Below, piece by piece: positions 1,255 to 31,202 of a stretch of DNA of 40,471 nt; positions within the stretch are counted from its first letter, which is position 1, and each line of letters begins with the position of its first letter. Below the pieces are notes generated by a model that did not search any database, had not been told where the DNA came from, and saw only the letters and a list, made by a program, of their open reading frames with translations. Position numbers and translations under genes: made by a program. Where the stretch lies: positions 1 through 40,471 of the IMG/VR virus record IMGVR_UViG_2547132281_000014; one strand, given 5' to 3'. Source of the DNA: a virus. Lineage: Duplodnaviria; Heunggongvirae; Uroviricota; Caudoviricetes.

Positions 1255-1368
1255 ATAAAACCGGGTGATGCAAAAGTAGCCATTTGATTCACAAGGCCAT
1301 TGACGCATCGCCCGGTTAGTTTTAACCTTGTCCACCGTGATTCACGTTCGTGAACATGTCCTTTCAGG

Positions 1369-1444
1369 GCCGATATAGCTCAGTTGGTAGAGCAGCGCAT
1401 TCGTAATGCGAAGGTCGTAGGTTCGACTCCTATTATCGGCACCA
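1369..1444 (+). tRNA. thrW: tRNA-Thr (anticodon CGU)
   Basis: 76-nt sequence GCCGATATAGCTCAGTTGGTAGAGCAGCGCATTCGTAATGCGAAGGTCGTAGGTTCGACTCCTATTATCGGCACCA with cloverleaf arms, anticodon loop TTCGTAA and encoded CCA; directly downstream of proA as in E. coli-type genomes. Confidence 0.9.
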
Positions 1445-1458
1445 TTTAAATCAATAAG

Positions 1459-2622
1459 TTACACATCATTAGTACCTTCCTTATTTTTTGACTGGGACAA
1501 ATTTGGGACCGATGGGTTTAGGATCGAGTCTATTTGCCGTGCGTGTTCGGTAAGGTGATTAGGTGCAAGGTGAGCATATCGACGAACCATTTCGATAGAC
1601 TCCCAGCCTCCCATTTCCTGTAACACTGACAACGGGACTCCGGCTTGAACTAGCCAACTTGCCCAGGTGTGTCTCAAGTCGTGAAATCTGAAATCATCAA
1701 TACCAGCCCGTCTCAGCGCCGCTTTCCAGGCTGTGTTTGCGTCATACCGCATCTTCCTGACTGTTGGCGCTTTCGTTCCGTCTGGTTTGGTACAGCTTTC
1801 CTTGTACACAAATACCCAACGGTGATGATTCCCGATTTGTTTTTTCAATACGCGACATGCAGTATCATTCAGCGCAACGCCAATTGCGCGGTTTGATTTA
1901 CTCTCTTCCGGGTTTATCCATGCCACCCGGCGCTGCATATCTATTTGTTGCCATTCAAGGTTGATGATGTTCGAGCGTCTTAGGCCTGTTGCCAGTGCAA
2001 ATTCAACAACAGACTTTAATGGCTCCGGACATTCATCAATCAGCCTTTGTGCTTCATGGGGCTCCAGCCAGCGGATCCGTTTATTCTTTGGTTGGGGCAC
2101 TTTAATAATTGGTGCCTTATCCAGCATTTTCCATTCACGCTCTGCGGCTCTTAGTAGGGCCTTTATAAATGAAAGATGCGTAGCCTTCGTTGCAACGGAC
2201 GCTGGTTTTGGCGTGTATTCTGGAACAGGTTTCCCTTTTTTTCTGCATGCTTCTGCCCTGAGTTTCCAGTTTTCCTCATGACGCCGGTTCGTCATTTTCT
2301 GCATTGCTGAATAAATTTTTGATTCAGTAATGTCTCTTAGTTGCATTCCTGCGAAATGTTGAAGCCAGAATCCGATCCGGCTTTTGTCATCGTCCAGTGA
2401 TTTTTTATGTGCTTTCTCTTCAAGCCACCTGACACACGCTTCCTCGAACGTTATATCAGGTATTTCACCAAGTTTGCTGACCCGCCATGCTTCAGCCTTT
2501 AGCTTGTCATGGAGTTCTGTCGCCTGCCTTTTGTCCTTTGTTCCAAGAGACTGTTTAAATCTTTTACCGTTCGGCAATGTGAAACTGGCGTACCATATTT
2601 CACCTCTGCGGAAGAGTGACAT
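1459..2622 (-). CDS. int: phage tyrosine integrase (site-specific recombinase)
   Basis: 387-aa ORF reading toward the tRNA; C-terminal [10 protein letters not shown]...MVRRYAHL tyrosine-recombinase motif; ATG at 2622 with GAGGAA Shine-Dalgarno. Confidence 0.9.
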
Positions 2623-2849
2623 TTTCTTTCCTCTGTTATGCCATCACCCGCGCTCACCTGGACAGTATGCAGCGGAGACTGAAGAGCCGCAATGCAGGCT
2701 TGTCGTGTTGTGAGGTAAGGAGATTTATTCTTAGTGGGATCTTTGCGTGTTGCCTGAAGACGCCCTGTGCGTATCCAGTTAATGGCAGTCGGTCTGGATA
2801 TCTTGAGAAAATGACAGGCCTCATCGAGTGTGAGGCTGTATGGCTCCAT
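2499..2849 (-). CDS. excisionase / AlpA-like HTH DNA-binding protein (start and extent uncertain; 3' end overlaps int)
   Basis: Internal ATG at 2849 preceded by GAGGTG and overlapping the upstream stop (TAATG); N-terminal [26 protein letters not shown] resembles AlpA/Xis-type HTH; sits directly upstream of int. Confidence 0.5.
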
Positions 2850-3154
2850 TATTTCACCTCTTGCTGTGACATTGTTGAAAAATGGATACCAGCTCGTTGC
2901 TGCCAGACGATCCAACCGAGAGTCATATCCCATGCCATGTATTCGTTATCGCCGTTTTTTGCTCTCCGACGATCTACTAAGTCACCGAAACGCTTTTCCA
3001 TGAATAATTCATAAGCTTCGCGTTCATCTGGTTCTACTTCCAGAGATAGGAGTGCGATTTCATAAGCACGGCGCTCAATATCGTCTCGCACGTCAAGGCT
3101 GCTGATACGCTCTTTAATTTCTTTAATCAGTTCTTTGTCGGTAAAAGTGGTCAT
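2849..3154 (-). CDS. hypothetical phage protein, YfdT-like by size and position (101 aa)
   Basis: ORF translationally coupled on both sides (TAATG overlaps); matches the 101-aa slot of the CPS-53 yfdQ/R/S/T cluster. Confidence 0.55.
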   Translation of the reverse strand: MTTFTDKELIKEIKERISSLDVRDDIERRAYEIALLSLEVEPDEREAYELFMEKRFGDLVDRRRAKNGDNEYMAWDMTLGWIVWQQRAGIHFSTMSQQEVK

Positions 3155-3516
3155 TATGCTCCAGCCTCCGGTGCTTTTGGCATTACTGCCCAGTGAGTGA
3201 TATTGACGTTTTCAAGGTCCCCGACCTGAAATGTCCACTGCCATTCTCCGGTTTCTTTTTGTCCCCAGGTGTACCAGAGAGAACGCCAGCCAATTAGCCA
3301 GCCTTCTCCGTTAGCATCGAATAACAAAACACTTTCATTTGCTGGTGGCAGTTCAGTTGACACTGGTATTACTTTGTTTTCCTGTGCTGCACATTTAGCT
3401 TCAAGCGCATCGAATTTACGCACCAGGTATTCAGCATCTGTTTCATTTACTTTCAGATCTCGCGGTACACATCTCCCACGAAGAAACCCTTCCATTTCGA
3501 AAACATTCATGCGCAT
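3154..3516 (-). CDS. hypothetical phage protein, YfdS-like (120 aa)
   Basis: ATG at 3516; the upstream gene's stop codon falls within its first codons; 120 aa as in YfdS. Confidence 0.55.
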   Translation of the reverse strand: MRMNVFEMEGFLRGRCVPRDLKVNETDAEYLVRKFDALEAKCAAQENKVIPVSTELPPANESVLLFDANGEGWLIGWRSLWYTWGQKETGEWQWTFQVGDLENVNITHWAVMPKAPEAGA

Positions 3517-5060: not shown

Positions 5061-5423
5061 TTAACGACCTGCTGCGCGGAGTTTTCCGTCAGGTTCACCG
5101 GCAAGAGTCAGTAACTGTCCCTGGTCTTCCTGCAGAATAGTCAGGCGACCACCGCGATTGACATACATCGGCGTTTCGGTGGTGTCTTCTTCGGAAATTT
5201 TCCCGCGGTTAGTCGGGCGAACATATGAGAGTTTGTGTTTGATTTTCACTCGGTTCTCATCAAACGGTTCGATTTCCAGGTTGAGCGAGACCTTACCTTT
5301 GGTTTTCGTGTTCATCACACCGGAAGCGACTTCACTGAGAACTGCGCCGATTTTGGTTTCAAATACGCCGCCGTCCAGCTCCCCGATAAATGCCTGCACA
5401 TCAGTACTGCGTTCGCTAGCCAT
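5061..5423 (-). CDS. hypothetical early-left protein, 120 aa (begins MASERSTDVQAF)
   Basis: Internal ATG at 5423 preceded by GAGGAG; the longer track ORF (to 5741) would run through the GC-rich structured noncoding block and looks like an artefact. Confidence 0.55.
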   Translation of the reverse strand: MASERSTDVQAFIGELDGGVFETKIGAVLSEVASGVMNTKTKGKVSLNLEIEPFDENRVKIKHKLSYVRPTNRGKISEEDTTETPMYVNRGGRLTILQEDQGQLLTLAGEPDGKLRAAGR

Positions 5424-5560
5424 TTTGCTGCTCCTCATCATATCGACTCTGCAAGGTCGGTTAGTTTCTCCACAAAACAGAGAAGAACACCTGCGGTGAC
5501 TGCCGCCCGGATGGATTGGGTTATGAGCCCGTCGTCCGGTGATGCTCTTCTCTGTTTTGT

Positions 5561-5604
5561 AAAAAGGACGGTACCAGCCGGAAGCAAGGGTACAAGCTGG
5601 TACC
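5561..5604 (-). terminator. putative intrinsic terminator for leftward (minus-strand) transcription
   Basis: 9-bp perfect stem GGTACCAGC/GCTGGTACC with 17-nt loop, followed on the minus strand by CCUUUUUAC. Confidence 0.5.
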
Positions 5605-5627
5605 GCCAAGACTACACACAGCATCAA

Positions 5628-5751
5628 GTTGTGGTGCCGGGTGCCTCCCGGTGCCTGGCGAAGGTTGCACACCAGGCGGGTGGGTATCCACAGAAGGTCG
5701 ACTGTCAGCCTCAACCTTAACCCGCGTGCGCTGAGCCGCATTCACCACAAC
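5628..5751. other. closed multi-helix structured element of unknown function (candidate ncRNA or cis-regulatory RNA)
   Basis: Long-range 9-bp helix GTTGTGGTG (5628-5636) / CACCACAAC (5743-5751) encloses nested hairpins CCGGG..CCCGG, GCCTGG..CCAGGC and GCGGGT..ACCCGC; GC-rich island with no convincing ORF on either strand. Confidence 0.3.
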
Positions 5752-5891
5752 GCTAAGGATTCTCTCTGGTTGAAAATACTTAGCTGTTATGTGCCTGCTT
5801 TTAGCCACATCAGGCGAGGTGGACCTGGTTATTCCCCAACAACAAGGATTCGGTTAATCTGGTTATCCCCAACAACGCAAAAGGAAAAGAA

Positions 5892-6326
5892 ATGTCCGGT
5901 AATATCTATACGCTGTACAAATCCCACTGTGAAAATGTTGGAAAGTATCGGGGCATTGAAATCAGTGGGGTAGTGTCATCAGTCGAAATAAGCAAAGTTG
6001 AATCAAGGGCAACATTACTTACTCTTTTGGACCTTGTCTTACATGAGCACCGGAAGAAATTCGGCACTCCCTATAATCAGTTGAATGGGAAAAAGGCTCT
6101 GGTTCACCTTATTCTGATGAAGCATCACTGGATGCCAAAACAGATTAATGAGATGAAATTTGATGAACTTCTTCTTTCAATTCAGGATGAACTCACACTT
6201 GATAAAATAAGCGTAACCGCCCAGAAATTTTTAGATTATCGAGACTGGAGAGCACAAATTCATCACTTTGATGATTTTGACGAAAATGAATGGGATCCTA
6301 ATTTGTCTGCACAATATCTAAAGTAA
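5892..6326 (+). CDS. hypothetical protein, 144 aa; AT-rich moron transcribed antisense to the early-left operon
   Basis: ATG at 5892 preceded by AAGGAAAAG; low GC; opposite orientation to all neighbours; two direct repeats upstream and a plus-strand terminator downstream. Confidence 0.6.
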   Translation: MSGNIYTLYKSHCENVGKYRGIEISGVVSSVEISKVESRATLLTLLDLVLHEHRKKFGTPYNQLNGKKALVHLILMKHHWMPKQINEMKFDELLLSIQDELTLDKISVTAQKFLDYRDWRAQIHHFDDFDENEWDPNLSAQYLK

Positions 6327-6504
6327 CATCCTGTGATAAAACCGTGATTTCCTGATCCAGTTTTTTTAAGGAGTCTATTGTTTCCTGTCGATAAGACAGC
6401 ACTTCACGAAGCTGGTTTATAGCTGCCAGCTTCTTTGTCATCCACTCATAAATTTCCTCATCTGTGTAGCCAGGCGCGACGATTTTGGGTTCTGTTTTGT
6501 GCAT
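6298..6504 (-). CDS. hypothetical protein, 68 aa, first gene downstream of the putative PL
   Basis: ATG at 6504 with GAGGAG Shine-Dalgarno 8 nt upstream (the track ORF starts at an upstream TTG); no arginine-rich N-like motif. Confidence 0.45.
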   Translation of the reverse strand: MHKTEPKIVAPGYTDEEIYEWMTKKLAAINQLREVLSYRQETIDSLKKLDQEITVLSQDVTLDIVQTN

Positions 6505-6562
6505 TTCACATCTCCTCAAGTTATCAGTTACTTGTTGATGGGGACCAGATTGTTAAAGAGCT

Positions 6563-6586
6563 AAGCGTCCTGTAGGGCGCTTTTTT
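6563..6586 (+). terminator. putative rho-independent terminator (plus strand)
   Basis: AAGCGTCC-TGTA-GGGCGCTT hairpin followed by TTTTTTG; lies about 240 nt downstream of the 5892..6326 gene, within and antisense to the 68-aa minus-strand gene. Confidence 0.5.
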
Positions 6587-6668
6587 GTTGCTAACGAATC
6601 ATCCTGGACTTCATATGCCCCAGGCGGCTACTTCGTGGGCGTCCTGCCTGTTCGTTGTCGGCAAAATG

Positions 6669-6697
6669 ATATTGCTACTTAAAGTTGCAAAAATCAA
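6669..6697 (-). promoter_or_regulatory. putative PL promoter with embedded operator (OL)
   Basis: Minus strand reads TTGATT-N17-CAATAT; the spacer holds CTACTTAAAGTTGCAA, the same motif as in the PR spacer. Confidence 0.45.
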
Positions 6698-7016
6698 CTA
6701 CAAAAAGTAGAAGTTAAGGGCATAAAAACGCATTTTGAAATTAATTCATTGAATTTACAGGTAAAATATTTTGGGGGCTATGATCAAAAAATTATATTGT
6801 GAAGTTAGCTGAGTTGTAGAACGTGATGGATTGTTTCATTGTGGCTGAGATCAGTATGTGATCTAGTTAATCATCAAGTGGGGAGAAGTCAATCATGAGA
6901 GTATTGTTGAGTTTTTGGAGGCTAAGTGTAAAACGGTAGGGAATTTACTACTCAATGGATTGTGTGATTTAGCCTCGATAGTAAGAAAACTAGGGCAGGT
7001 CATAGTCAAAAACTTA

Positions 7017-7301
7017 TCAAAACATAAATTTGGCGAGACCTAAAATCGCCAAGCCTGTTGCAACAGTCCATGCGATCTGTTTATTTACGGCTGATGAAAT
7101 AGCGCTGTTGACTTCACTTAGGCTAGGTTTTTTTGACAACTTTTCATCTATATCTATTTGTTTTTGAAGGATAACAGCGACATCGCGTCGGGTGTCGGAG
7201 AGAGCGTTTCGCAAATCACGAATGTCAGCTCTCATCTCTGCGAGATTTGTTTTTATATCCTCAACATTCGCTTCTAACTTAGCGACTCGGGCTTCAAGCA
7301 T
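7017..7301 (-). CDS. coiled-coil protein with C-terminal transmembrane helix (XhlA-like architecture), 94 aa; alternative upstream start at 7424 gives 135 aa
   Basis: ATG at 7301 with GGAGGTG 7 nt upstream; heptad-like MLEARVAKLEANVEDIKTNLAEMRADIRDL followed by hydrophobic IAWTVATGLAILGLAKFMF; occupies the lambda rexB position. Confidence 0.5.
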   Translation of the reverse strand: MLEARVAKLEANVEDIKTNLAEMRADIRDLRNALSDTRRDVAVILQKQIDIDEKLSKKPSLSEVNSAISSAVNKQIAWTVATGLAILGLAKFMF

Positions 7302-7368
7302 GTCATCACCTCCGCCATCTCCACCGTGTCTTCTAATTGTGGGAAGTTCACTATTAAATGGTACTACA

Positions 7369-7716
7369 TTATTTTGCGGCGTCGGCATTTTTTTCATCTT
7401 CCGTTTTTGCTGGGAACTTTTCATTTACCCAGTTCAAAACTGAAAACGCATTTATATGAATTTCATTTCCACAATTGTTGCATATTAGTGAAAAGTAATA
7501 CTGGTTAGCAGTATCAGAATAAATGCTTTTTTCAGTAAAAACATTCACATAACTACCAAGTTTCATAGTACATGGCATGCCCACATTCGCGCTGACTTGA
7601 GGCACAGTCAATCTGTCGTGTCCACATAGTGTACATTTTAGATATATATTCTTTTCTGAGAAATAAGAGACCAACATATCCATGTTAATCTTTTCGAATC
7701 CCTGCTCACTAGCCAT
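7369..7716 (-). CDS. zinc-ribbon-like protein, 115 aa (CTLCGH ... CNNCGN), immediately downstream of cI
   Basis: ATG at 7716 with AAGGG Shine-Dalgarno, 15 nt after the cI stop; two CxxC pairs; AT-rich; occupies the lambda rexA position. Confidence 0.6.
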   Translation of the reverse strand: MASEQGFEKINMDMLVSYFSEKNIYLKCTLCGHDRLTVPQVSANVGMPCTMKLGSYVNVFTEKSIYSDTANQYYFSLICNNCGNEIHINAFSVLNWVNEKFPAKTEDEKNADAAK

Positions 7717-7731
7717 TATATGCCCTTAGAA

Positions 7732-8472
7732 CTATAACCGATTGTATTTTATTGACTCATGAATCAACGCCTTGCCCATTACATAAAGCTGATCCTGCGA
7801 TTTTTCATCGATGTACCATTTCTCATAGGCAGGGTTATCCGAAAGAACGGCTAGCTTGTCACCTTGCATTTGAAGACGTTTAACATGAAAAGTCTTACCG
7901 TAAACGAAAGAGTAAATTCCATCAGTCTGGAAGTGACGAACAGAAATGTCGACAAACAGTCGATCTCCGGAAACGAGAGTAGGGGACATACTATCGCCAT
8001 TTACAGTCATAACCTTAATATCATCCTGAGAACGGTTACCGAAAAGAGAACGGGCATGTTCTGTTGTGAACTCAATGGCGTAGAGCACATCAACATAGTC
8101 TGAAAGCATATAGGTTCCAGGTCCTGCGCTAACGCTAAGATCTAAAACTTCTATCCTGTATACGTCGGGTTTTGTTGGATTGGGGATGCTTGCCATTTCC
8201 TTACATCCTTCTCTCTCGCCAACACCATATTCTAAATATGAAGCCGATACCCCCAGAGCCAACGCAAGTTTATTCATGACAGAGGCACGAGGCTTCGCTG
8301 CGCCGATTGTGTATCGCCGCGCCATTTCATATGTAACGCCAACAAGACTTTTGAGTTGGGTGACAGAAATTCCCTTGTTTGTCATTAACTCGTTTAGTCT
8401 CTTGGCGAAATCTGGATACTTCTGTTCTTCTACCATAGGTAGAAGATTACTCACATCACATACGCTCGTCAT
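7732..8472 (-). CDS. CI-type prophage repressor (N-terminal HTH plus C-terminal S24 LexA-like peptidase domain)
   Basis: HTH region GISVTQLKSLVGVTYEMARRY and peptidase motif VNGDSMSPTL; divergent from the cro-like gene across operators; the track start at 8493 is a TTG, and the ATG at 8472 may give a leaderless start. Confidence 0.85.
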   Translation of the reverse strand: MTSVCDVSNLLPMVEEQKYPDFAKRLNELMTNKGISVTQLKSLVGVTYEMARRYTIGAAKPRASVMNKLALALGVSASYLEYGVGEREGCKEMASIPNPTKPDVYRIEVLDLSVSAGPGTYMLSDYVDVLYAIEFTTEHARSLFGNRSQDDIKVMTVNGDSMSPTLVSGDRLFVDISVRHFQTDGIYSFVYGKTFHVKRLQMQGDKLAVLSDNPAYEKWYIDEKSQDQLYVMGKALIHESIKYNRL

Positions 8473-8489
8473 TTCTATTTTAAGTAGTT

Positions 8490-8518
8490 GCAATTCGCTA
8501 CTTTAAGTAGCATTATCC
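8490..8518 (+). promoter_or_regulatory. putative PR promoter with embedded operator (OR)
   Basis: TTGCAA-N17-CATTAT with spacer containing CTACTTTAAGTAG; followed by AGGAG and the cro-like ATG at 8544; inverted AAGTAG/CTACTT half-sites across 8480-8510. Confidence 0.5.
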
Positions 8519-8543: not shown

Positions 8544-8807
8544 ATGTCATCTCAAAACTACACCGAGAAAGCAGTAAAGGCTGCGGGAAAGTCTTTATCT
8601 GAAGTAGCTCGTCGCTTTGGTTTTAAATCTACTCAATCTGTCGCTAATTGGGTAATTAACAATCAAGTCCCGTCGGAACGAGTTTTACAACTTTGTGAGC
8701 TGGGGAACTGGTCCGTAACCCCCCATGAGCTGCGTCCTGATATTTATCCAAATCCAAATGATGGATTACCAGAGTGCTATTCAAAAGTTAGCGGTTCAGT
8801 TGCGTAA
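8544..8807 (+). CDS. Cro-like HTH regulator (YdaS family)
   Basis: First rightward gene after OR; HTH SLSEVARRFGFKSTQSVANWV and ELRPDIY motif recalled from YdaS-type proteins. Confidence 0.7.
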   Translation: MSSQNYTEKAVKAAGKSLSEVARRFGFKSTQSVANWVINNQVPSERVLQLCELGNWSVTPHELRPDIYPNPNDGLPECYSKVSGSVA

Positions 8808-9387
8808 ACGTAACCACAGAAACGAGGAGTTAACCGTGGGTAAGCATCACTGGAAAGTAGAAAAACAGCCTGAGTGGTACGTGAAAGCTGTCAGAAAAAC
8901 TATCGCGGCGTTGCCGGGTGGTTACGCTGAAGCTGCTGACTGGCTGGATGTAACAGAGAACGCATTATTTAACCGCCTTCGTGCCGATGGCGATCAGATT
9001 TTCCCGCTGGGATGGGCAATGGTTTTACAGCGCGCAGCTGGCACTCACTACATTGCTGATGCTGTCGCACAGTCTGCTGGTGGGGTGTTCGTATCGCTTC
9101 CTGAAATTGAGGAAGTAGAGAACGCCGATATAAACCAGCGCCTGCTGGAAGTCATCGAACAGATCGGGAGTTACTCAAAGCAGATTCGTTCGGCAATCGA
9201 AGATGGGGTAGTGGAGCCACACGAGCAGACAGCAATTAATGATGAGTTGTATCTGTCAATTTCGAAGCTCCAGGAGCATGCAGCACTGGTCTACAAAATC
9301 TTTTGCGCTCCAGAAAAGAGTGACGCCCGCGAGTGTGCAGCTCCGGGCGCCGTGGCGTGTCGTGACTGTGGAGAAACTAACGCATGA
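8758..9387 (+). CDS. CII-like regulator (YdaT family)
   Basis: Position after cro; tandem ATG at 8758 and 8761; resembles proteins annotated as YdaT family in E. coli prophages (from memory). Confidence 0.6.
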
Positions 9388-19848: not shown

Positions 19849-21578
19849 GCCGGAAATCTTACCCCAACGTAAATGCTGCCAATCAGTATGCCCGTGATGT
19901 TGTGCGCGGAAAGATTGTGGCCTGCCAGTTTGTGATTCAGGCCTGCCAGCGCCATCTTGATGACCTGATGGCGGAAAAAAGTAAGTCGTTTCGTTACCGC
20001 TTCGACAAGGACCTGGCTGAACGGGCCGCCAAATTTATTCAGCTGTTGCCGCACACCAAGGGTGAGTGGGCATTCAAGAGGATGCCCATCACGCTGGAGC
20101 CGTGGCAGCTATTTGTGGTCTGCTGTGCGTTTGGCTGGGTCAATAAAGGGTCCCGGCTGCGCCGCTTCCGGGAGGTGTATACCGAAATCCCCCGTAAGAA
20201 CGGCAAATCGGCAATCTCTGCCGGTGTTGCCCTGTATTGTTTTGCCTGTGATAACGAGTTTGGCGCGGAAGTGTATTCCGGTGCCACGACAGAGAAACAG
20301 GCGTGGGAAGTCTTTCGCCCGGCGCGACTGATGTGTAAACGCACACCCATGCTGACGGAAGCGTTCGGGATTGAGGTTAACGCCTCAAACATGAATCGTC
20401 CGGAGGATGGCGCGCGGTTTGAACCGCTGATCGGTAACCCCGGTGATGGTTCATCACCCCACTGTGCGGTGGTGGATGAATATCACGAGCACGCCACCGA
20501 TGCGCTTTACACCACGATGCTTACCGGGATGGGGGCGCGACGTCAGCCACTGATGTGGGCCATTACTACTGCCGGGTACAACATTGAGGGGCCGTGCTAC
20601 GACAAGCGACGGGAAGTTATCGAGATGCTCAACGGGTCGGTACCCAACGATGAACTGTTCGGGATCATCTATACCGTTGACGAAGGCGATGACTGGACCG
20701 ACCCGCAGGTGCTGGAAAAAGCTAACCCGAATATTGGCGTGTCGGTTTATCGCGAATTTTTGTTAAGTCAGCAGCAGCGTGCGAAAAATAACGCCCGTCT
20801 GGCAAATGTCTTTAAAACAAAACACCTCAATATCTGGGTGTCGGCGCGTTCGGCGTATTTCAACCTGGTGAGCTGGCAGAGCTGCGAGGATAAATCACTG
20901 ACCCTTGAGCAGTTCGAGGGGCAGCCGTGCATTCTGGCCTTTGACCTGGCCCGTAAGCTGGATATGAACAGCATGGCGCGACTTTATACCCGCGAGATTG
21001 ACGGTAAAACGCATTACTACAGTGTGGCCCCGCGTTTCTGGGTACCGTATGACACGGTGTACAGCGTCGAGAAAAATGAAGATCGCCGGACAGCCGAACG
21101 CTTTCAGAAATGGGTGGAAATGGGCGTCCTGACCGTTACCGATGGTGCAGAGGTGGATTATCGCTACATCCTCGAAGAGGCCAAAGCGGCGAACAAAATC
21201 AGCCCGGTCAGCGAGTCACCCATCGACCCCTTCGGGGCGACCGGGCTGTCACATGACCTTGCTGATGAAGACCTGAATCCCATCACCATCATTCAGAACT
21301 ACACCAACATGTCCGACCCGATGAAAGAGCTGGAAGCGGCAATTGAATCGGGGCGCTTTCATCATGATGGCAATCCCATCATGACCTGGTGTATCGGCAA
21401 CGTGGTCGGCAAAACCATTCCGGGTAACGATGATGTGGTGAAGCCCGTCAAGGAGCAGGCGGAAAACAAAATTGATGGTGCAGTTGCGCTGATTATGGCG
21501 GTTGGCAGAGCCATGCTGTACGAGAAAGAAGACACGCTGTCTGATCACATTGAGTCCTACGGGATCCGCTCGCTTTAA
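19845..21578 (+). CDS. terminase large subunit
   Basis: 577 aa; ATPase-like N-terminal region and nuclease-like C-terminal region; canonical position before the portal. Confidence 0.9.
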
Positions 21579-21589
21579 CTGAGGTAATT

Positions 21590-21772
21590 ATGATCATGCT
21601 GATTCTCGCGCCTCTGGTGGGCGTGCTGGGTGCGCTTTTGCTGGCGTATGGTGCCTGGCTGATTTATCCCCCGGCGGGGTTTGTTGTTGCCGGGGCGCTG
21701 TGCCTGTTCTGGTCGTGGCTGGTGGCGCGATATCTCGACCGTACACAGCCGTCTGTCGGCGGAGGTAAATAG
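21590..21772 (+). CDS. small membrane protein, 60 aa
   Basis: Two hydrophobic helices; tightly packed between terminase and portal. Confidence 0.4.
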
Positions 21773-23013
21773 TGTTCTTTTCGGGATTATTTCAACGAAA
21801 AAGTGACGCACCGGTGACCACGCCAGCAGAGCTGGCGGATGCTATCGGGCTGTCATATGACACCTATACCGGAAAGCAGATCAGCAGCCAGCGGGCCATG
21901 CGACTGACGGCGGTTTTTTCCTGCGTCAGGGTGCTGGCGGAGTCGGTCGGGATGTTGCCCTGCAACCTGTATCACCTGAACGGCAGCCTGAAACAGAGAG
22001 CCACCGGCGAACGTCTGCATAAGCTGATCTCCACGCATCCCAATGGCTATATGACGCCGCAGGAGTTCTGGGAGCTGGTGGTCACCTGTCTGTGCCTGCG
22101 GGGAAACTTTTACGCCTACAAAGTGAAAGCATTTGGCGAAGTGGCTGAACTGCTGCCCGTCGACCCAGGTTGTGTGGTACCGAAGCTTAACAGTAGCTGG
22201 GAACCGGTTTACCAGGTCACATTCCCGGACGGCTCCACGGATGTACTGAGCCAGGAAGATATCTGGCATGTGCGCACGCTGACGCTGGACGGTCTGGTGG
22301 GACTGAATCCCATCGCCTATGCCCGCGAGGCAATATCGCTGGCAGCTGCGACCGAAGAGCACGGGGCCAGACTGTTCAGCAATGGTGCGGTGACGTCCGG
22401 TGTGTTGCGTACAGAGCAGACGCTGTCGGATCAGGCTTATGAGCGTCTGAAGAAAGATTTTGAGGAGCGTCACACCGGGCTTGGTAATGCTCACCGCCCG
22501 ATGATCCTTGAGATGGGGCTGGACTGGAAGTCGATGGCGCTGAACGCCGAGGACAGCCAGTTCCTGGAAACCCGCAAGTTTCAGCTTGAAGAAATCTGTC
22601 GTCTGTTCCGTGTTCCATTGCACATGGTGCAGAACACCGATCGCGCCACCTTCAACAATATCGAAGAACTGGGGCTGGGATTTATCAACTATTCACTGGT
22701 GCCGTATCTGACCCGCATTGAGCAGCGGATCAACACCGGACTGGTACGAAAAAGTAAGCAGGGCGTTTATTACGCCAAATTTAACGCCGGGGCGTTACTG
22801 CGCGGGGATATGAAGTCCCGTTTTGAAGCCTACGCCACCGGGATTAACTGGGGAATTTACTCTCCCAATGACTGCCGCGACCTGGAAGATATGAATCCGC
22901 GTCCCGGTGGGGATGTCTATCTCACACCGATGAACATGACCACGAAACCCTCCGATGGCAGTAAAGCCGGTAAGCAGAAGGATAACGCCAATGCAGACGA
23001 AACAACGTCTTGA
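21772..23013 (+). CDS. portal protein (HK97 family)
   Basis: 413 aa, follows the terminase, composition and size typical of HK97-type portals. Confidence 0.85.
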   Translation: MFFSGLFQRKSDAPVTTPAELADAIGLSYDTYTGKQISSQRAMRLTAVFSCVRVLAESVGMLPCNLYHLNGSLKQRATGERLHKLISTHPNGYMTPQEFWELVVTCLCLRGNFYAYKVKAFGEVAELLPVDPGCVVPKLNSSWEPVYQVTFPDGSTDVLSQEDIWHVRTLTLDGLVGLNPIAYAREAISLAAATEEHGARLFSNGAVTSGVLRTEQTLSDQAYERLKKDFEERHTGLGNAHRPMILEMGLDWKSMALNAEDSQFLETRKFQLEEICRLFRVPLHMVQNTDRATFNNIEELGLGFINYSLVPYLTRIEQRINTGLVRKSKQGVYYAKFNAGALLRGDMKSRFEAYATGINWGIYSPNDCRDLEDMNPRPGGDVYLTPMNMTTKPSDGSKAGKQKDNANADETTS

Positions 23014-23641
23014 TGTACCGCTGAGTCTGAAATCTGTCAGTGACTCCGGTGAGTTTGAAGGGTATGGCTCCGTCTTTGGTGTAAAGGACAGCCACGATGA
23101 TGTGGTGATGTCCGGGGCATTTGCTGCTTCCCTGCGGGCGTGGAGTGACAGAAAAGCGTTACCTGCGCTGCTCTGGCAGCACCGCATGGATGAACCCATC
23201 GGTGTTTACACCGAAATGAAGGAAGACGATGTCGGGCTTTACGTCAGGGGACGGTTGCTTATTGATGATGATCCCCTCGCAAAACGCGCACATGCACACA
23301 TGAAGGCCGGTTCGTTAACCGGCCTTTCTATTGGGTACGTCCTGAAAGACTGGGAATACGACCGGAGCAAAGAAGCCTTTCTGTTGAAAGAAATCGACCT
23401 CTGGGAAGTCAGTCTGGTGACGTTTCCGTCTAACGACGAGGCGCGGATCAGCGACGTCAAGAACGCGCTGGCCCGCGGGGAAATCCCCGAACAGAAAAAA
23501 ATCGAAAGAGTCCTGCGTGATGTCGGACTCTCCCGTACCCAGGCCAAAGCATTCATGGCCGGGGGCTATGGCGCACTGTCCCTGCGCGACGCTGAGGATG
23601 TGAGCTCTGCACTGAATGCACTGAAAAATCTGAACTTCTAA
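22991..23641 (+). CDS. prohead maturation protease (HK97 family)
   Basis: ATG at 22991 with AAGGA; overlaps the portal 3' end; between portal and major capsid gene. Confidence 0.75.
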   Translation: MQTKQRLDVPLSLKSVSDSGEFEGYGSVFGVKDSHDDVVMSGAFAASLRAWSDRKALPALLWQHRMDEPIGVYTEMKEDDVGLYVRGRLLIDDDPLAKRAHAHMKAGSLTGLSIGYVLKDWEYDRSKEAFLLKEIDLWEVSLVTFPSNDEARISDVKNALARGEIPEQKKIERVLRDVGLSRTQAKAFMAGGYGALSLRDAEDVSSALNALKNLNF

Positions 23642-23655
23642 TCAGGAGAAATACG

Positions 23656-24861
23656 ATGGCGGTAGATATTAAAGATGTCGAACAGGTCGCGCAGGAGCTG
23701 CAGCAGAAGTTTGACGACTTCAAAGCAAAGAACGACAAGCGCGTGGATGCGATTGAGCAGGAAAAAGGCAAGCTTGCCGGGCAGGTGGAAACCCTGAACG
23801 GGAAACTCAGCGAGCTGGAAAACCTCAAAAGCGATCTTGAAAAAGAGCTGCTTGAGCTGAAACGTCCGGCAGGTGGTGCGCAAAATAAACTGGCCACCGA
23901 GCATAAAGAAGCGTTTGTGGGCTTCCTGCGTAAAGGCCGTGAAGATGGTCTGCGCGATCTGGAGCGCAAGGCATTACAGGTGGGCACCGATGAAGACGGC
24001 GGCTATGCCGTGCCGGAAGCACTGGATCGCAACATTCTCACCCTGCTGAAAGATGAAGTGGTGATGCGCCAGGAAGCCACGGTGATCACCGTTGGTGGTT
24101 CCGACTACAAAAAACTGGTGAATCTGGGCGGCACGGCTTCCGGATGGGTTGGCGAGACTGACGCGCGCTCCCAGACTGCCACCTCAAAACTGGGCCTGAT
24201 TGAACCTTTCATGGGGGAAATCTACGGTAACCCGCAGGCCACCCAGAAAATGCTGGATGATGCCTTTTTCAACGTGGAAGCATGGATCAACAGCGAGCTG
24301 GCAACCGAATTTGCCGAACAGGAAGAAATTGCCTTTACCACCGGCGATGGTACCAAGAAGCCGAAAGGGTTCCTGGCGTATGAATCCACGGATGAAACCG
24401 ATAAGGTCCGGGCGTTCGGCAAACTTCAGCATATTGTATCCGGCGACGCGACGGCGGTGACCGCAGACGCCATTATCAAACTGATTTACACGCTGCGTAA
24501 GGCACACCGCACCGGCGCGAAGTTCATGATGAACAACAATAGCCTGTTTGCCATCCGTCTGCTGAAAGACAGCGAGGGTAACTATCTGTGGCGTCCGGGG
24601 CTGGAGCTGGGGCAGCCGTCCTCTCTGGCGGGTTACGGTATCGCTGAAAACGAACAGATGCCCGATATCGCCGCTGATGCGAAAGCCATTGCATTTGGTA
24701 ACTTCAAACGGGGTTACACCATCGTTGACCGTATCGGCACCCGCATTCTGCGTGACCCGTACACCAATAAACCGTTTGTCGGTTTTTATACCACCAAACG
24801 CACCGGCGGCATGCTGGTCGATTCGCAGGCCATCAAACTGCTGAAGATTGCAGTGGCGTAA
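23656..24861 (+). CDS. major capsid protein (HK97 fold) with N-terminal coiled-coil scaffolding-like domain
   Basis: 401 aa; coiled-coil N-terminus (KLAGQVETLNGKLSELENLKSDLEKELLELK) then capsid body; follows the protease. Confidence 0.9.
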   Translation: MAVDIKDVEQVAQELQQKFDDFKAKNDKRVDAIEQEKGKLAGQVETLNGKLSELENLKSDLEKELLELKRPAGGAQNKLATEHKEAFVGFLRKGREDGLRDLERKALQVGTDEDGGYAVPEALDRNILTLLKDEVVMRQEATVITVGGSDYKKLVNLGGTASGWVGETDARSQTATSKLGLIEPFMGEIYGNPQATQKMLDDAFFNVEAWINSELATEFAEQEEIAFTTGDGTKKPKGFLAYESTDETDKVRAFGKLQHIVSGDATAVTADAIIKLIYTLRKAHRTGAKFMMNNNSLFAIRLLKDSEGNYLWRPGLELGQPSSLAGYGIAENEQMPDIAADAKAIAFGNFKRGYTIVDRIGTRILRDPYTNKPFVGFYTTKRTGGMLVDSQAIKLLKIAVA

Positions 24862-24868
24862 TCACTCA

Positions 24869-24895
24869 GGGGCGCGGAACCGCGCCCCTGTTCTG
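24869..24895 (+). terminator. possible attenuating hairpin after the capsid gene
   Basis: GGGGCGCGG-AAC-CGCGCCCC stem followed by TGTTCTG (weak U-tract). Confidence 0.3.
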
Positions 24896-24909
24896 ACGGG
24901 TGAAGAATC

Positions 24910-25110
24910 ATGATCCTGAAACAAGATCTGAAATGGTCACCGGACGGTATGCGTGTTGAGGTCATTCGGGCCGGTGAGTATGACGACGGGGCGCTTCCTG
25001 CCCGGGTGCAGGAGATTGCACTTCAGGCCGGGTTAGCAGAGCGCGGAACCAGTGCAAAAAGCAGTAAAGCGACAAAAGAGAAAAAAGCCACGACCAGTAA
25101 AGAGGGCTGA
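24910..25110 (+). CDS. hypothetical small head-module protein
   Basis: 66-aa ORF between capsid and connector genes. Confidence 0.4.
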   Translation: MILKQDLKWSPDGMRVEVIRAGEYDDGALPARVQEIALQAGLAERGTSAKSSKATKEKKATTSKEG

Positions 25111-25112
25111 GT

Positions 25113-25436
25113 ATGCTTCTGACAATGGAAGAGATTAAAGCCCAACTCCGGCTGGATGAGGATTTCGATGCTGATGACCGCCATCTGCAACTGCTGGCCT
25201 GTGCGGCACAAAAGCGGACGGAAACGTATCTGAACCGGAAGCTCTATGCACCGGATGAAACCATTCCGGACAGCGATCCGGACGGGCTGCACCTGCCGGA
25301 TGATATTCGTCTGGGGATGCTGATGCTTATCAGCCATTTTTACGAAAACCGCTCGTCGGTTACGGAAGTGGAGAAACTCGACATGCCGCAGAGTTTTGGC
25401 TGGCTTGTCGGCCCGTACAGGTACTTTCCGCAATGA
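25113..25436 (+). CDS. head-tail connector protein (gp6-like)
   Basis: 107 aa; position and acidic composition typical of gp6-like connectors. Confidence 0.65.
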   Translation: MLLTMEEIKAQLRLDEDFDADDRHLQLLACAAQKRTETYLNRKLYAPDETIPDSDPDGLHLPDDIRLGMLMLISHFYENRSSVTEVEKLDMPQSFGWLVGPYRYFPQ

Positions 25437-25843
25437 AAATTCGTCAGGCGCAGACCAGCGCAACCTACATTCTGCCGGACCCCGGTGAACTGAATAAACG
25501 CGTCCTGATCCGCCAGCGGGTGGATATGCCCGCGGATAACTTTGGCGTGGAGCCTCAATACCCGGTTACGTTCCGGACATGGGCGAAGGTTATCCAGACC
25601 AGTGCCACCACCAGGCAGGAAACCGCGCAGACCGGGGACGCCATCACCCATTACATCACCATTCGTTACCGCCGGGGGATCACTGCTGATTATGAGGTGG
25701 TCTGTGATGACAGTGTGTACCGGGTGAAACGTCAGCGTGATCTGAACGGGGCGCGGCGCTTTCTGCTGCTGGAGTGTACGGAGCTGGGCGAATGTAGGCA
25801 GAGTCACGGAGGCAGCAATGGCGACTCCCTTTTTTCACGTTGA
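25433..25843 (+). CDS. head closure / head-tail adaptor protein
   Basis: ATGA-coupled to the connector gene; position within the head-completion block. Confidence 0.55.
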   Translation: MKIRQAQTSATYILPDPGELNKRVLIRQRVDMPADNFGVEPQYPVTFRTWAKVIQTSATTRQETAQTGDAITHYITIRYRRGITADYEVVCDDSVYRVKRQRDLNGARRFLLLECTELGECRQSHGGSNGDSLFSR

Positions 25844-26324
25844 TGTTCAGCAGCCCGCCGAGATGCGCTTTAACCGCGCCCGTGTCCGGCGGGCGTTTGT
25901 CATGATTGGGCAGCGTCATATGCGTGATGCCCGTCGGCTGGTGATGCGCCGTGCGCGGTCGGCACCGGGTGAAAACCCCGGTTATCAGACCGGACGCCTG
26001 GCTCGTTCGATTGGTTATATGGTGCCGAGAGCCAGTAAAAAGCGAGCCGGTTTTATGACACGCATTGCCCCTAACCAGCGCAACGGGAAGGGGAACCGGA
26101 TGATCTCTGGTGACTTCTATCCGGCGTTTCTGTTTTTTGGTGTCCGGGGAGGAGCAAAACGTCGTCGTAGTCATCATCGTGGTGCATCCGGTGGCAGCGG
26201 CTGGCGACTGGCTCCACGTAATAACTTCATGGTGGAAACGCTTGAAAAGAACCGCAGCTGGACACGCTATTTTCTGGCGCGGGAATTGCGTAAATCACTG
26301 AAGCCGGAGCGACGACACAGATGA
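25818..26324 (+). CDS. virion morphogenesis protein (HK97 gp10-like)
   Basis: ATG at 25818 with GGAGG; basic protein in the neck block. Confidence 0.5.
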   Translation: MATPFFHVDVQQPAEMRFNRARVRRAFVMIGQRHMRDARRLVMRRARSAPGENPGYQTGRLARSIGYMVPRASKKRAGFMTRIAPNQRNGKGNRMISGDFYPAFLFFGVRGGAKRRRSHHRGASGGSGWRLAPRNNFMVETLEKNRSWTRYFLARELRKSLKPERRHR

Positions 26325-26881
26325 AACTGACGCCTGTTATTGCTGCACTGCGTGCCCGTTGTCCGTATTTTGAAAACCGGGTTGCAGGCGCGGCCCAGTT
26401 CAAAAATCTGCCGGAGGTCGGAAAACTGAAACTCCCGGCGGCATATGTTGTACCGGGTGATGATTCTCCGGGAGAAAACAAAAGCCAGACCGACTACTGG
26501 CAGGAGCTGAAAGAGGGTTTCTCCGTGGTTGTCATACTGAGTAACGGGCGTGATGAGCGCGGTCAGTTTGCCTCGTATGATGTGGTGGACGATGTCCGGC
26601 AGATGCTCTTTAAGGCTCTGCTGGGCTGGAACCCGGAGGCGTGCGGTAACCCGATTACCTATGACGGCGGCACGCTGCTGGATCTGAATCGTCATGAGCT
26701 GATTTATCAGTTCGATTTTTCGGTCATCAGCGAGCTGACTGAAGACGATACCCGCCAGCAGGATGATCTGAACAGTCTGGATGAACTGCAAACGCTGGCG
26801 ATTGATGTTGATTATCTCGAGCCCGGTAACGGGCCTGACGGCGATATCGAACATCACACCGAAATAACCCTTCCTTCCTGA
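26321..26881 (+). CDS. tail completion or sheath-terminator-like protein
   Basis: 186 aa, precedes the sheath gene. Confidence 0.45.
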   Translation: MKLTPVIAALRARCPYFENRVAGAAQFKNLPEVGKLKLPAAYVVPGDDSPGENKSQTDYWQELKEGFSVVVILSNGRDERGQFASYDVVDDVRQMLFKALLGWNPEACGNPITYDGGTLLDLNRHELIYQFDFSVISELTEDDTRQQDDLNSLDELQTLAIDVDYLEPGNGPDGDIEHHTEITLPS

Positions 26882-26889
26882 GGATCCTC

Positions 26890-27060
26890 ATGTTTGTCAA
26901 ACCTGTTAAAGGGCGGTCAGTGCCTGACCCTGCCCGCGGCGACCTTTTGCCCGCCGAAGGGCGAAATGTTGACGAGAACAACTACTGGCTGCGCCGTGAA
27001 GCAGCGGGTGATATCCGGCGCGTGAATAAAAAGGTGAACACCGATGACGATAAGCTTTAA
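26890..27060 (+). CDS. small Mu-like protein (DUF2635-like), 56 aa
   Basis: ATG at 26890; MFVKPVKGRSVPDPARGDLLPAEGRNVDENNYWLRRE...; overlaps the sheath gene start; below the ORF-track cut-off. Confidence 0.35.
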   Translation: MFVKPVKGRSVPDPARGDLLPAEGRNVDENNYWLRREAAGDIRRVNKKVNTDDDKL

Positions 27061-28540
27061 CACCATTCCGTCGAATACGCTGGTTCCGTTGTTTTATGCG
27101 GAAATGGATAACCAGGCGGCGAATACTGCACAGGACAGCGGAGCATCGCTGCTGATTGGTCATGCCAATAACGGTGCAGAGATTGTTGCCAACAGTCTGG
27201 TACTGATGCCGTCGGCAGACTATGCACGCCAGATTTGTGGTGCGGGAAGTCAGCTGGCGCGTATGGTCGAGGCTTATCGCCAGACCGACCCGTTTGGCGA
27301 GCTGTATGTGATTGCCGTTCCGGAAGCCACAGGCGCGGCGGCAACGGTTACGCTGACGGTGACCGGGGCGGCAACCGAAACCGGCACGGTGAATGTTTAT
27401 GTGGGACGTACCCGCGTGCAGGCACCGGTGACCAACGGCGATAACGTCGCGACGATTGCCAGCAGTATCAAAGATGCCATTAATGCCGTTCCGGCCCTGC
27501 CGTTTACGGCCTCATCTTCGGCAGGCGTGGTCACGCTGACCGCGCGTCATAAGGGGCTTTGCGGGAATGAAATTCCTGTCAGCCTCAATTACTACGGCTT
27601 TGGTGGGGGCGAAGTGCTGCCAGCGGGCGTACAGATTGCTATGGCGACGGGGAGCGCCGGAACGGGCGCTCCTGTTCTCACCGGCGCGGTGGCTGCAATG
27701 GCGGATGAGCCGTTTGATTATATCGGCCTGCCGTTCAACGACACGGCCTCCGTTAACACGCTGGTGACCGAGATGAACGATACCAGCGGTCGCTGGAGCT
27801 ATGCGCGTCAGCTGTATGGTCATGTGTATACGGCAAAGATCGGCACGCTGTCAGAACTGGTGACCGCAGGTGACCAGTTTAACCAGCAGCACATTACCCT
27901 GGCGGGGTACGAAAAAGAGACCCAGACGCCTGCCGACGAGCTGGCGGCAAGCCGTACCGCCCGCGCAGCGGTGTTTATCCGCAACGATCCGGCACGTCCC
28001 ACGCAGACCGGTGAGCTGGTGGGTATGCTGCCTGCGCCGAAGGGGAAACGGTTCACGATGACCGAACAACAGACCCTGCTGTCTCATGGCGTGGCAACGG
28101 CGTATGTCGAAAGCGGGGTACTACGCATTCAGCGTGATGTCACCACGTACAGGAAAAACGCTTACGGGGTTGCGGATAACAGTTACCTCGACAGTGAGAC
28201 GCTGCATACCAGCGCGTATGTACTGCGCAAACTGAAATCCGTCATTACCAGTAAGTACGGGCGTCACAAGCTTGCCAGTGACGGTACCCGCTTTGGTCCC
28301 GGTCAGGCGATTGTCACCCCGGCGGTGATCAAAGGGGAACTGCTGGCAACCTACCGTCAGCTTGAGCGTGCGGGGATCGTGGAAAACTACGAACTGTTTA
28401 AGCAGTACCTGGTTGTGGAGCGTGATGCCAGCGATCCGAACCGCCTGAACACGCTGTTCCCGCCTGACTATGTTAACCAGCTGCGTGTCTTTGCCGTGGT
28501 TAATCAGTTCCGTCTTCAGTATTCAGAGGAGTCTGCATAA
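27044..28540 (+). CDS. contractile tail sheath protein (Mu gpL-like)
   Basis: 498 aa; followed by the tube gene, chaperone pair and tape measure in Mu-like order. Confidence 0.85.
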   Translation: MTISFNTIPSNTLVPLFYAEMDNQAANTAQDSGASLLIGHANNGAEIVANSLVLMPSADYARQICGAGSQLARMVEAYRQTDPFGELYVIAVPEATGAAATVTLTVTGAATETGTVNVYVGRTRVQAPVTNGDNVATIASSIKDAINAVPALPFTASSSAGVVTLTARHKGLCGNEIPVSLNYYGFGGGEVLPAGVQIAMATGSAGTGAPVLTGAVAAMADEPFDYIGLPFNDTASVNTLVTEMNDTSGRWSYARQLYGHVYTAKIGTLSELVTAGDQFNQQHITLAGYEKETQTPADELAASRTARAAVFIRNDPARPTQTGELVGMLPAPKGKRFTMTEQQTLLSHGVATAYVESGVLRIQRDVTTYRKNAYGVADNSYLDSETLHTSAYVLRKLKSVITSKYGRHKLASDGTRFGPGQAIVTPAVIKGELLATYRQLERAGIVENYELFKQYLVVERDASDPNRLNTLFPPDYVNQLRVFAVVNQFRLQYSEESA

Positions 28541-28896
28541 TGGCCCGTATCGGGGGAACCTGTTATTTCAAAATTGACGGTCAGCAGCTATCGCTGACCG
28601 GCGGCATTGAGGTGCCCATGAACAAAACGGTTAACGATGACATCATCGGCCTGGACGGTTCAGTGGACCGCAAGGAAACTCACCGTGCGCCTTATGTCAA
28701 AGGGACCTTCAAGGTGCCGAAGAATTTTCCGGTAAGCAAAATCACCTCGTCTGATGAGATGACCATCACTGCCGAGCTGGCGAACGGTCAGGTCTATGTA
28801 CTGTCGTCTGCCTGGCTGCACGGCGAAGCGAACCATAATGCCGAAGAAGGCACGGTTGATCTTGAGTTCCACGGTGAAGAAGGGGATTACCAGTAA
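28540..28896 (+). CDS. tail tube protein
   Basis: 118 aa immediately after the sheath gene (ATAATG coupling). Confidence 0.7.
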   Translation: MARIGGTCYFKIDGQQLSLTGGIEVPMNKTVNDDIIGLDGSVDRKETHRAPYVKGTFKVPKNFPVSKITSSDEMTITAELANGQVYVLSSAWLHGEANHNAEEGTVDLEFHGEEGDYQ

Positions 28897-29165
28897 TGAA
28901 AGAGCTTGAGTTAAAGAAACCGATTACTGCTCATGGCGAGACACTCTCCGTACTGGAGTTTGATGAACCCACCGGGAAGGATGTCCGCGAGCTGGGGTAT
29001 CCCTACCAGATGAATCAGGATGAGTCAGTCAGACTTCTGGCGCATGTGGTGTCGAAATACATTGTGCGGCTGGCGAAAGTGCCGCAAAGCTCTGTCGACC
29101 AGATGTCTCCGGCAGACCTGAATGCAGCGGCGTGGCTTGTGGCCGGTTTTTTCCTCCAGGCCTGA
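28896..29165 (+). CDS. tail assembly chaperone (possible frameshift partner ORF at 29132..29320)
   Basis: Small acidic ORF before the tape measure with an overlapping out-of-frame ORF, the usual G/GT-like arrangement. Confidence 0.5.
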   Translation: MKELELKKPITAHGETLSVLEFDEPTGKDVRELGYPYQMNQDESVRLLAHVVSKYIVRLAKVPQSSVDQMSPADLNAAAWLVAGFFLQA

Positions 29166-29306
29166 CGGCTGAATACCTCACTGATCGCTTCTTTGACTGC
29201 GCCAGCTACTGGCGCATTAATCCTTTCGAATTGCTGAATATGCCGATCAGTGAAATTCCCTTGCTGGTCAGTCAGGCAAACAGGATAGAGCAGGAGAAAC
29301 GCACAC

Positions 29307-31142: not shown

Positions 31143-31202
31143 TGAAAAATTAATCTGTTAATGAGTCCCACTCCGGTGGGATTTTTTATGTACGGAGTTT
31201 AT

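Follow-up and report, generated by a model that had tools for sequence, protein, structure and literature searches.

Prophage genes beside the immunity region supply many anti-phage and host-conversion functions, and how prophages escape their own lysogen-expressed genes is known for few systems. Morons, a concept derived from HK97 and HK022, are autonomous units of promoter, gene and terminator lying between conserved phage genes. Here, we analyzed a 40,471-nucleotide stretch of viral DNA (IMG/VR record IMGVR_UViG_2547132281_000014; the whole stretch is called the window), in which a plus-strand gene for a protein of 144 amino acids faces the first gene behind the leftward promoter PL, encoding a protein of 68 amino acids. 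A preliminary description of the sequence had read the plus-strand gene as a moron with its own terminator, transcribed antisense to the PL operon. Akin to a moron, the 144-amino-acid gene lies between conserved flanks, is absent or replaced in relatives, is low in G+C and has its own predicted terminator; it also adjoins the immunity region, as do rexAB and sieB of lambda. It differs from a moron in that a promoter is not demonstrable, and in that, within the PL operon, the unit occupies the opposite strand and is accompanied by a conserved partner on the lytic strand.

The very same slot, with the same flanks, is occupied in the e14 prophage of Escherichia coli K-12 by a different convergent pair, ymfI (plus strand) and ymfJ (minus strand), which ExcludonFinder lists from RNA-seq data as a convergent excludon (PMC12288877). 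The likeness lies in convergent genes whose transcripts, by the geometry of open reading frames (ORFs) and terminators in the present case, would overlap and so give mutually exclusive expression. The ECs1072-type and YdfC-like proteins described below have no relation to YmfI and YmfJ, and the RNA evidence is that of e14, whereas the present cassette is known from sequence.

In Qin-type phages, ydfC precedes DicF, a small RNA (sRNA), as well as dicB in a repressor-controlled operon. The ydfABC-dicF-dicB arrangement resembles the present locus in that a gene of the YdfC family lies near the start of a leftward operon under repressor control and an sRNA comes after it, the position of DicF being taken here by an STnc100/PasD-like element. 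Qin-type phages lack an ECs1072-type antisense gene, and YdfC is not the very first gene of their operon. A further parallel is BstA, whose self-immunity element is reportedly DNA within bstA and not a protein. The BstA-aba system (PMC8585504) resembles our cassette in logic only, combining a lysogen-side gene near the repressor locus with an element that spares its own prophage; it has no sequence or fold similarity to the cassette.

Conservation of the convergent pair

The two genes at the center of this analysis are:

5892 to 6326, plus strand: gene of the ECs1072 family (144 amino acids), ATG start, assigned by family matches
6504 to 6298, minus strand: YdfC-like gene (68 amino acids), GAGGAG ribosome-binding site at 6516 to 6511

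Their ORFs converge and overlap by 29 nucleotides at the 3' ends. The 144-amino-acid protein matched NF033230 (ECs1072 family) over residues 4 to 144 with 157.1 bits (E = 2.9e-46; curated cut-off 70 bits) and phrog_5286 over 144 of 144 positions (E = 3.5e-90). By these profile matches the ORF is, beyond chance, a real gene of the ECs1072 family. A word-index homology search reached only 14 close relatives; an exhaustive HMMER search was needed to recover 76 clusters at 50% identity, in which stand-alone proteins mostly have about 145–155 amino acids. In an alignment of 41 family sequences H72 and W134 were invariant, and L50, R54, L64, G66, A69 and W80 nearly so. An AlphaFold2 model based on this alignment was all-alpha (predicted local distance difference test (pLDDT) 92.2, predicted template modeling score (pTM) 0.86), and the protein has neither a signal peptide nor a transmembrane segment. 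The 68-amino-acid protein was 39–41% identical to the annotated ydfC products of Qin-type phages over 66 of 68 residues (E about 2e-9) and matched phrog_1744 (E = 6e-35); no Pfam model matched it.

Neither NF033230 nor phrog_5286 has an assigned function. Scans of both proteins with Pfam, PADLOC and NCBIfam returned no functional family, PADLOC-DB 2.0 gave no match to a known defence family at E ≤ 0.1, and neither protein resembled a known toxin or antitoxin family. Literature searches on ECs1072, YdfC and PhiR29 yielded no functional information, the publications on YdfC giving no function. The homology and structure search that had been proposed for the 144-amino-acid protein produced a named family; it brought no functional assignment, no relative of known function within the family and, with the model as query, no fold relative. 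Arrays of uninduced O157 Sakai gave a signal for ECs1072 itself (PMC2241611).

Sequence comparison shows that the ECs1072-type and YdfC-like genes are conserved as a convergent pair, overlap at their 3' ends and travel together. At the same position behind PL, locus L134 carries a distant ECs1072-type gene (35% identical) that again faces a YdfC-like gene with a 29-nucleotide overlap. YdfC-like genes, among them Sb50 and GP45, are also opposed by ECs1072-type genes without annotation in a Serratia prophage, in ST64B and in Klebsiella phage KPP5665-2. The unannotated genes lie at about 2345 to 2779 (plus strand) in ST64B (L142) and about 2345 to 2791 (plus strand) in KPP5665-2 (L143). A scan of genome contigs for related loci returned only 3 loci, and a locus scan with query P0021 found none. 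With three other divergent family members as queries, 19 further loci were retrieved. An opposite-strand YdfC-like ORF overlapping the 3' end was present in all 19 (hidden Markov model E-values from 1e-7 to 1e-34), and 18 of the 19 matched the ECs1072 profile. Among nine representative pairs the ECs1072-type proteins were 25–68% and their partners 14–71% identical, with overlaps of 29–140 nucleotides, and the divergences of the two partners were correlated (Spearman rho 0.76). Across the 55 sequence clusters of the slot described below, a YdfC-like gene occurred only alongside an ECs1072-type gene, with one exception in which the domain is embedded in a 193-amino-acid protein. After this survey the view of the 68-amino-acid gene as a chance neighbor was rejected; it is the conserved partner of the 144-amino-acid gene.

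In all cases examined the YdfC-like gene came first behind a regulated lytic promoter, which was PL, a promoter resembling PR, or the late promoter that follows Q. The positions of the pair were as follows:

At PL, with cI (confirmed by Pfam) as neighbor: the window, L134 and L144
Behind a promoter divergent from a cI-like gene and in front of replication genes: L145
Between Q and the holin gene: L146 (Pfam) and KPP5665-2 (annotation of its record)
Beside the lysis cassette: L148, L156, L158, the Serratia locus (L014) and ST64B, with an upstream Q-like gene that has no Pfam match

The same partner and the same head-on arrangement were thus kept in three genomic positions, down to 25–40% identity. 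The anatomy put forward in the preliminary description, in which a cargo gene on the opposite strand has a terminator to itself and converges with the first PL gene, is right, and its head-on arrangement recurs in distant relatives.

Signals on the two strands

On the plus strand, the ORF, the Shine-Dalgarno sequence, the upstream direct repeats and the terminator previously ascribed to the 144-amino-acid gene are all present in the sequence. The Shine-Dalgarno sequence AAGGA lies at 5881 to 5885 (plus strand), 6 nucleotides ahead of the ATG. The other elements are:

5801 to 5860, plus strand: candidate promoter region, whose homologue in related cassettes is a TTYACC-N17-TATCYT element
5818 to 5836 and 5852 to 5870 (element 5818 to 5876), plus strand: direct repeats CTGGTTAT(T)CCCCAACAAC, 79% identical and 34 nucleotides apart
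6408 to 6433, plus strand: first hairpin, 9 base pairs, folding free energy −17.1, z −3.7, followed by TTTGTCAT, inside the coding sequence of the 68-amino-acid protein
6563 to 6588, plus strand: distal terminator, predicted as a strong intrinsic one, with the hairpin AAGCGTCC-TGTA-GGGCGCTT at 6563 to 6582 (8-base-pair stem, UGUA loop), then TTTTTTG

While the direct repeats were found as described, they are actually a 34-base-pair duplication of a promoter-proximal and 5' untranslated segment that is single-copy in homologous cassettes. In such cassettes (L144, L146 and L014, from PL and late contexts) the sigma-70-like TTYACC-17-TATCYT element scores 8–11 by weight matrix, and at the equivalent place it also precedes other cargo genes in SfV, SfII and e14.

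The distal terminator had been placed about 240 nucleotides past the stop codon, and its hairpin and T6 tract indeed begin 237 nucleotides after it. The T6 tract is found on the plus strand only, and the hairpin at 6563 to 6582 is stronger on the plus strand than on the PL strand. The terminator sits beyond the start codon and ribosome-binding site of the 68-amino-acid gene. Because it ends only about 75 nucleotides short of the PL start, a plus-strand RNA would be antisense to the entire 68-amino-acid gene; the antisense 3' untranslated region of the preliminary description is therefore predicted by the ORF and terminator geometry. The hairpin at 6408 to 6433 is possibly a weak proximal terminator. 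Terminator-like sites numbered 9, compared with 3.6 ± 1.8 expected. The terminator block was found in 9 cargo clusters with different cargo genes, each of which (9/9) carries an antisense ORF of at least 125 amino acids. Variants of the stem (e.g., in L132) pair on the plus strand via G·U and show A·C mismatches on the PL strand. Since the variants keep their pairing on the antisense strand, and the hairpin of the window is likewise stronger on the plus strand, these data point to selection for a plus-strand terminator. In relatives from late regions, a plus-strand terminator lies inside the coding sequence of the partner, 17–45 nucleotides past the stop, with compensatory stem changes. Taken by its signals, the 144-amino-acid gene would be a separate transcription unit on the strand opposite PL, having its own ribosome-binding site and two predicted plus-strand terminators.

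The elements of the opposing transcript, and of its counterpart at PR, are:

6697 to 6669, minus strand: PL, TTGATT-17-CAATAT, a near copy of PR
8488 to 8516: PR, TTGCAA-17-CATTAT
6675 to 6687 and 6698 to 6710: operators CTACTTTAAGTAG, a palindrome from the cI-cro intergenic region that recurs at PL
6587 to 6661, minus strand: structured, conserved leader RNA at the 5' end of the PL transcript

The placement of PL, formerly putative, was confirmed by the operator repeats common to PR and by the near-identical promoter. From this location the PL transcript starts at about 6662 and the 68-amino-acid gene is its first ORF, in agreement with the earlier gene order.

The leader RNA consists of an invariant 23-mer, GGCAGGACGCCCACGAAGUAGCC, within a covarying outer helix and beside a covarying 5-base-pair hairpin. 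It was found in at least 120 viral contigs, following at least five unrelated types of promoter and operator. Compensatory changes were observed in 10 of 14 base pairs, and 94.8% of pairs were formed. The covariance model R1 scored 92.7 bits in the window, where the leader is present in a single copy. The leader belongs to no Rfam family, and an Rfam scan of the terminator and leader region returned no family, the sole hit being a sub-threshold STnc100 match further left. Akin to the put RNA of HK022 (PMC9378689), it is a conserved structured RNA immediately after PL. It differs in architecture, an outer helix enclosing the invariant 23-mer and the hairpin, and model R1 had no match at E ≤ 10 in HK022 positions 20000–34000; homology to put is accordingly unsupported, the position right after PL being all that is shared. 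The PL leader is a candidate cis-acting antitermination or processing element.

The cargo slot and its genomic setting

By comparison with related phages, the site is a hypervariable cargo slot between the conserved PL leader and the early-left genes. The flanks left of 5822 and right of 6593 are conserved in SfV, SfII, mEp460, ST64B, 118970_sal3 and K-12 e14, while the interior differs. An inner frame is common to PhiR29 and two E. coli prophages with other plus-strand genes (243, 171 and 167 amino acids), all of which start at the same offset. This frame includes the repeats and the terminator, because its left part ends at 5876 and its right part resumes at 6545. Cargo swaps begin at 5877, and a recombination junction at 5876/5877 was observed in PhiR29, L009, L010 and L016. 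Scanning viral contigs with the conserved right flank yielded at least 120 loci, of which 109 with enough downstream sequence were kept and grouped into the 55 sequence clusters. An antisense ORF of 110–170 amino acids was present in about 16–20 of these clusters; many slots have no antisense gene.

Immediately upstream of its ECs1072-type gene, and antisense as well, the slot of L144 carries a gene for a KAP-family P-loop nucleoside triphosphatase-like protein (1350 to 2905, plus strand), which means that the slot can hold several lysogen-strand genes. A recurrent antisense cargo family of 146–166 amino acids with two predicted transmembrane helices was observed in L021, L080, L108 and L113, and L130 contains an LprI-like secreted protein; neither had an above-threshold Pfam match or a PADLOC match. 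In Pfam, PADLOC and NCBIfam scans of 14 other cargo proteins no functional family was found, except for a weak mad1 helix-turn-helix match in mEp460. An 81-amino-acid ORF at 3162 to 3407 (plus strand) of SfV (L002) is without annotation in the public record. An imperfect inverted repeat, AATCTGGTTATCCCCAACAA, at 5856 to 5875 and 6532 to 6551 (75% complementary) brackets the cargo, so that the 5' untranslated regions of both convergent genes hold the same motif; other cargo variants also carry it at their right end. There was no evidence that these repeats are the ends of an invertible segment, every cargo gene in the frame having the same orientation.

The window as a whole is a temperate phage of the SfIV/SfV/e14 type, integrated beside a tRNA gene, with the following landmarks:

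1369 to 1441: tRNA
1459 to 2622: int
7732 to 8493, minus strand: cI-like repressor with S24 peptidase and helix-turn-helix domains
8544 to 8807, plus strand: cro-like gene
8725 to 9387, plus strand: cII-like activator gene

Over 5700 to 6660, Shigella phage SfIV and the Escherichia phages Kati, 569R4 and 689R6 share 98–99.9% identity with the window. The whole cassette was present in 407 of 5426 complete E. coli genomes (about 7.5%), with no signs of decay. The AT-rich character of the 144-amino-acid gene was borne out, G+C dropping to 0.37–0.41 over 5850 to 6450 from 0.52–0.55 immediately leftward. Its standing as the only plus-strand gene of the early-left arm also held, since the other plus-strand ORFs between int and PL overlap known minus-strand genes or the sRNA-like region. 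The latter (5558 to 5769, minus strand) matches the STnc100/PasD-like prophage sRNA with 43 bits, below the gathering score of 47 (E = 2e-7), and there is a weak DicF-like match at 5566 to 5620. The 226-amino-acid ORF at 5061 to 5741 is probably a 120-amino-acid yfdP gene extended across the STnc100-like RNA; RefSeq labels the extension a frameshifted pseudogene.

In the rexAB-like position, directly downstream of cI and between cI and PL, there are two small minus-strand genes, 7369 to 7716 for a 115-amino-acid CxxC protein (phrog_4293) and 7017 to 7424 for a 135-amino-acid coiled-coil protein (phrog_3556). This position is empty in SfIV and holds a ParA-like ATPase in strain PKF11, making 7017 to 7716 a second variable slot.

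Proposed lysogenic and lytic use of the pair

The best overall explanation, which we hold with moderate confidence, is that the opposite-strand cargo gene and its lytic-strand partner form a switch between lysogeny and lytic growth. In the lysogen, with the lytic promoter shut, the ECs1072-type protein alone would be made, at a low level. Once transcription starts from the lytic promoter, collisions between converging RNA polymerases, together with antisense pairing, would silence the ECs1072-type gene, and the YdfC-like protein, made first on the lytic transcript, may counteract or replace the ECs1072-type protein. The latter would most likely be a lysogen-specific effector, for example in superinfection protection or host modulation, that is disarmed at the start of the phage's own lytic growth. 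The lysogen/lytic wiring proposed in the preliminary description is supported in part and, through the comparison of relatives, strengthened, although it is as yet an inference from sequence; the arrangement suggests an effector with a lytic-phase partner. A more specific version is put forward only tentatively: a two-gene prophage module in which a lysogen-only effector, for example of abortive infection or exclusion, is combined with an antidote placed first behind whichever lytic promoter is at hand, amounting to a portable, promoter-coupled self-immunity. In e14, ymfJ rose late in an SOS time course by about 4–4.8 log2 units, like the PR-side gene ymfM (PMC11002266), as expected of a repressor-controlled gene. 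The array signal of ECs1072 in Sakai and the ymfI-ymfJ overlap of e14 are indirect indications that such a gene may be expressed from the repressed prophage.

Several observations weigh against the switch. Consensus and weight-matrix scans upstream of the 144-amino-acid gene in the window found no convincing sigma-70 promoter; the best local candidate, TTCCCC-17-TAATCT (5832 to 5860), scored 5.55, the median of random 250-nucleotide windows, and the homologous −10 position reads ACCTGG, followed by the 34-base-pair duplication. Independent transcription of the gene in this phage is therefore no more than plausible. Locus L015 has a 55%-identical family member without a YdfC-like partner, and in Qin-type phages YdfC-like genes also occur alone. 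In E. albertii the 144-amino-acid gene has been swapped by recombination while the partner keeps its first 52 residues, only its C-terminus being changed; hence the pairing is not absolute. Overlapping genes are hard to part by recombination, and co-occurrence could be inflated on that account. Finally, ymfI rose by only 1–2 log2 units in the SOS course, a slight increase and no fall (PMC11002266).

Among the alternatives, it is conceivable, though we think it unlikely, that transcription or the RNA itself is functional and the protein secondary. In lysogens, plus-strand transcription across the beginning of the PL operon would then insulate or brake a leaky PL, silencing the YdfC-like gene together with the sRNA-like element, xis and int. 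Very different cargo genes in the same frame, with the same orientation and terminator, would fit such a role, as would a terminator placed just short of PL and the excludon behavior reported for e14 ymfI-ymfJ. This reading does not account for the conservation of ECs1072 as a protein, seen in its invariant H72 and W134, the confident model (pLDDT 92) and the 76 clusters; nor for the retention of the same partner across three genomic positions, and many slots manage without any antisense gene.

Antitermination at nut and boxA sites, as in lambda and the rrn operons, provides the background to a second alternative, which centers on a further element of the terminator block:

6550 to 6562, minus strand: boxA-like AGCTCTTTAACAA, read on the PL transcript immediately 3' of the hairpin, with 12 of 13 bases of the rrn boxA

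Akin to these systems, an rrn-type boxA lies about 100 nucleotides into the PL transcript, and it follows a hairpin, the order found in rrn operons. It is the only such site in the window, and no equivalent was found downstream of PR. Cargo variants share GCTCTTTAA but differ in the hairpin, and the boxA is kept in every locus with the terminator block. The block at 6545 to 6594 could therefore be mainly a signal of the PL transcript, its likeness to a terminator being incidental, and the 144-amino-acid gene could be read from elsewhere or, dependent on an activator, only during lytic growth or establishment. The antisense RNAs paQ of lambda and sar of P22 are analogues for activator-dependent reading; the window encodes a cII-like activator, and a constitutive promoter was not found. 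The protein encoded first on the PL transcript is acidic, with no arginine-rich motif, and no N-like protein was identified, a systematic search for N homologues not having been made. We regard a main role in the PL transcript as a little less probable than insulation, given that the hairpin is stronger, and in some variants pairs only, on the plus strand, that the T6 tract is confined to that strand, that the block occurs only with an antisense gene (9/9 clusters), and that late-region relatives have their own plus-strand terminators without a boxA. The two roles do not exclude each other: since the boxA reads on the PL transcript and the evidence for the plus-strand terminator stands, the block may serve both strands.

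More doubtful still is a toxin-antidote or addiction module in which the two proteins neutralize each other and the overlap only sets their ratio, with no specific link to superinfection defence. Tight conservation of the pair, overlapping 3' ends, correlated divergence and the small size of two proteins without assigned function all speak for such a module. A partner made only from a repressed lytic promoter, however, would leave the toxin unopposed in the lysogen, yet the complete cassette persists undecayed in the E. coli genomes counted above; the convergent orientation is atypical for type II toxin-antitoxin systems, and the lack of similarity to known toxin or antitoxin families also argues against it. 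A mosaic accident without regulatory meaning is very improbable, for although lambdoid genomes are mosaic and the slot is a recombination hotspot, orientation, overlap and first-gene position recur at 25–40% identity in three contexts.

The switch between effector and lytic-phase partner thus remains our preferred explanation. The gene family had already been named, with no function assigned; that the pair is conserved and coupled to lytic promoters appears not to have been described in the searchable literature. If the explanation is true, the pair follows a simple design rule, with the effector on the lysogen strand and the antidote on the lytic strand, and would provide a first functional context for two y-ome-type families, ECs1072 and YdfC. 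The slot, with its conserved frame of promoter and terminator and its 55 cargo clusters, is a catalogue of candidate lysogen-expressed genes, and for a large group of phages the PL leader RNA may represent a new element acting in cis on transcription.

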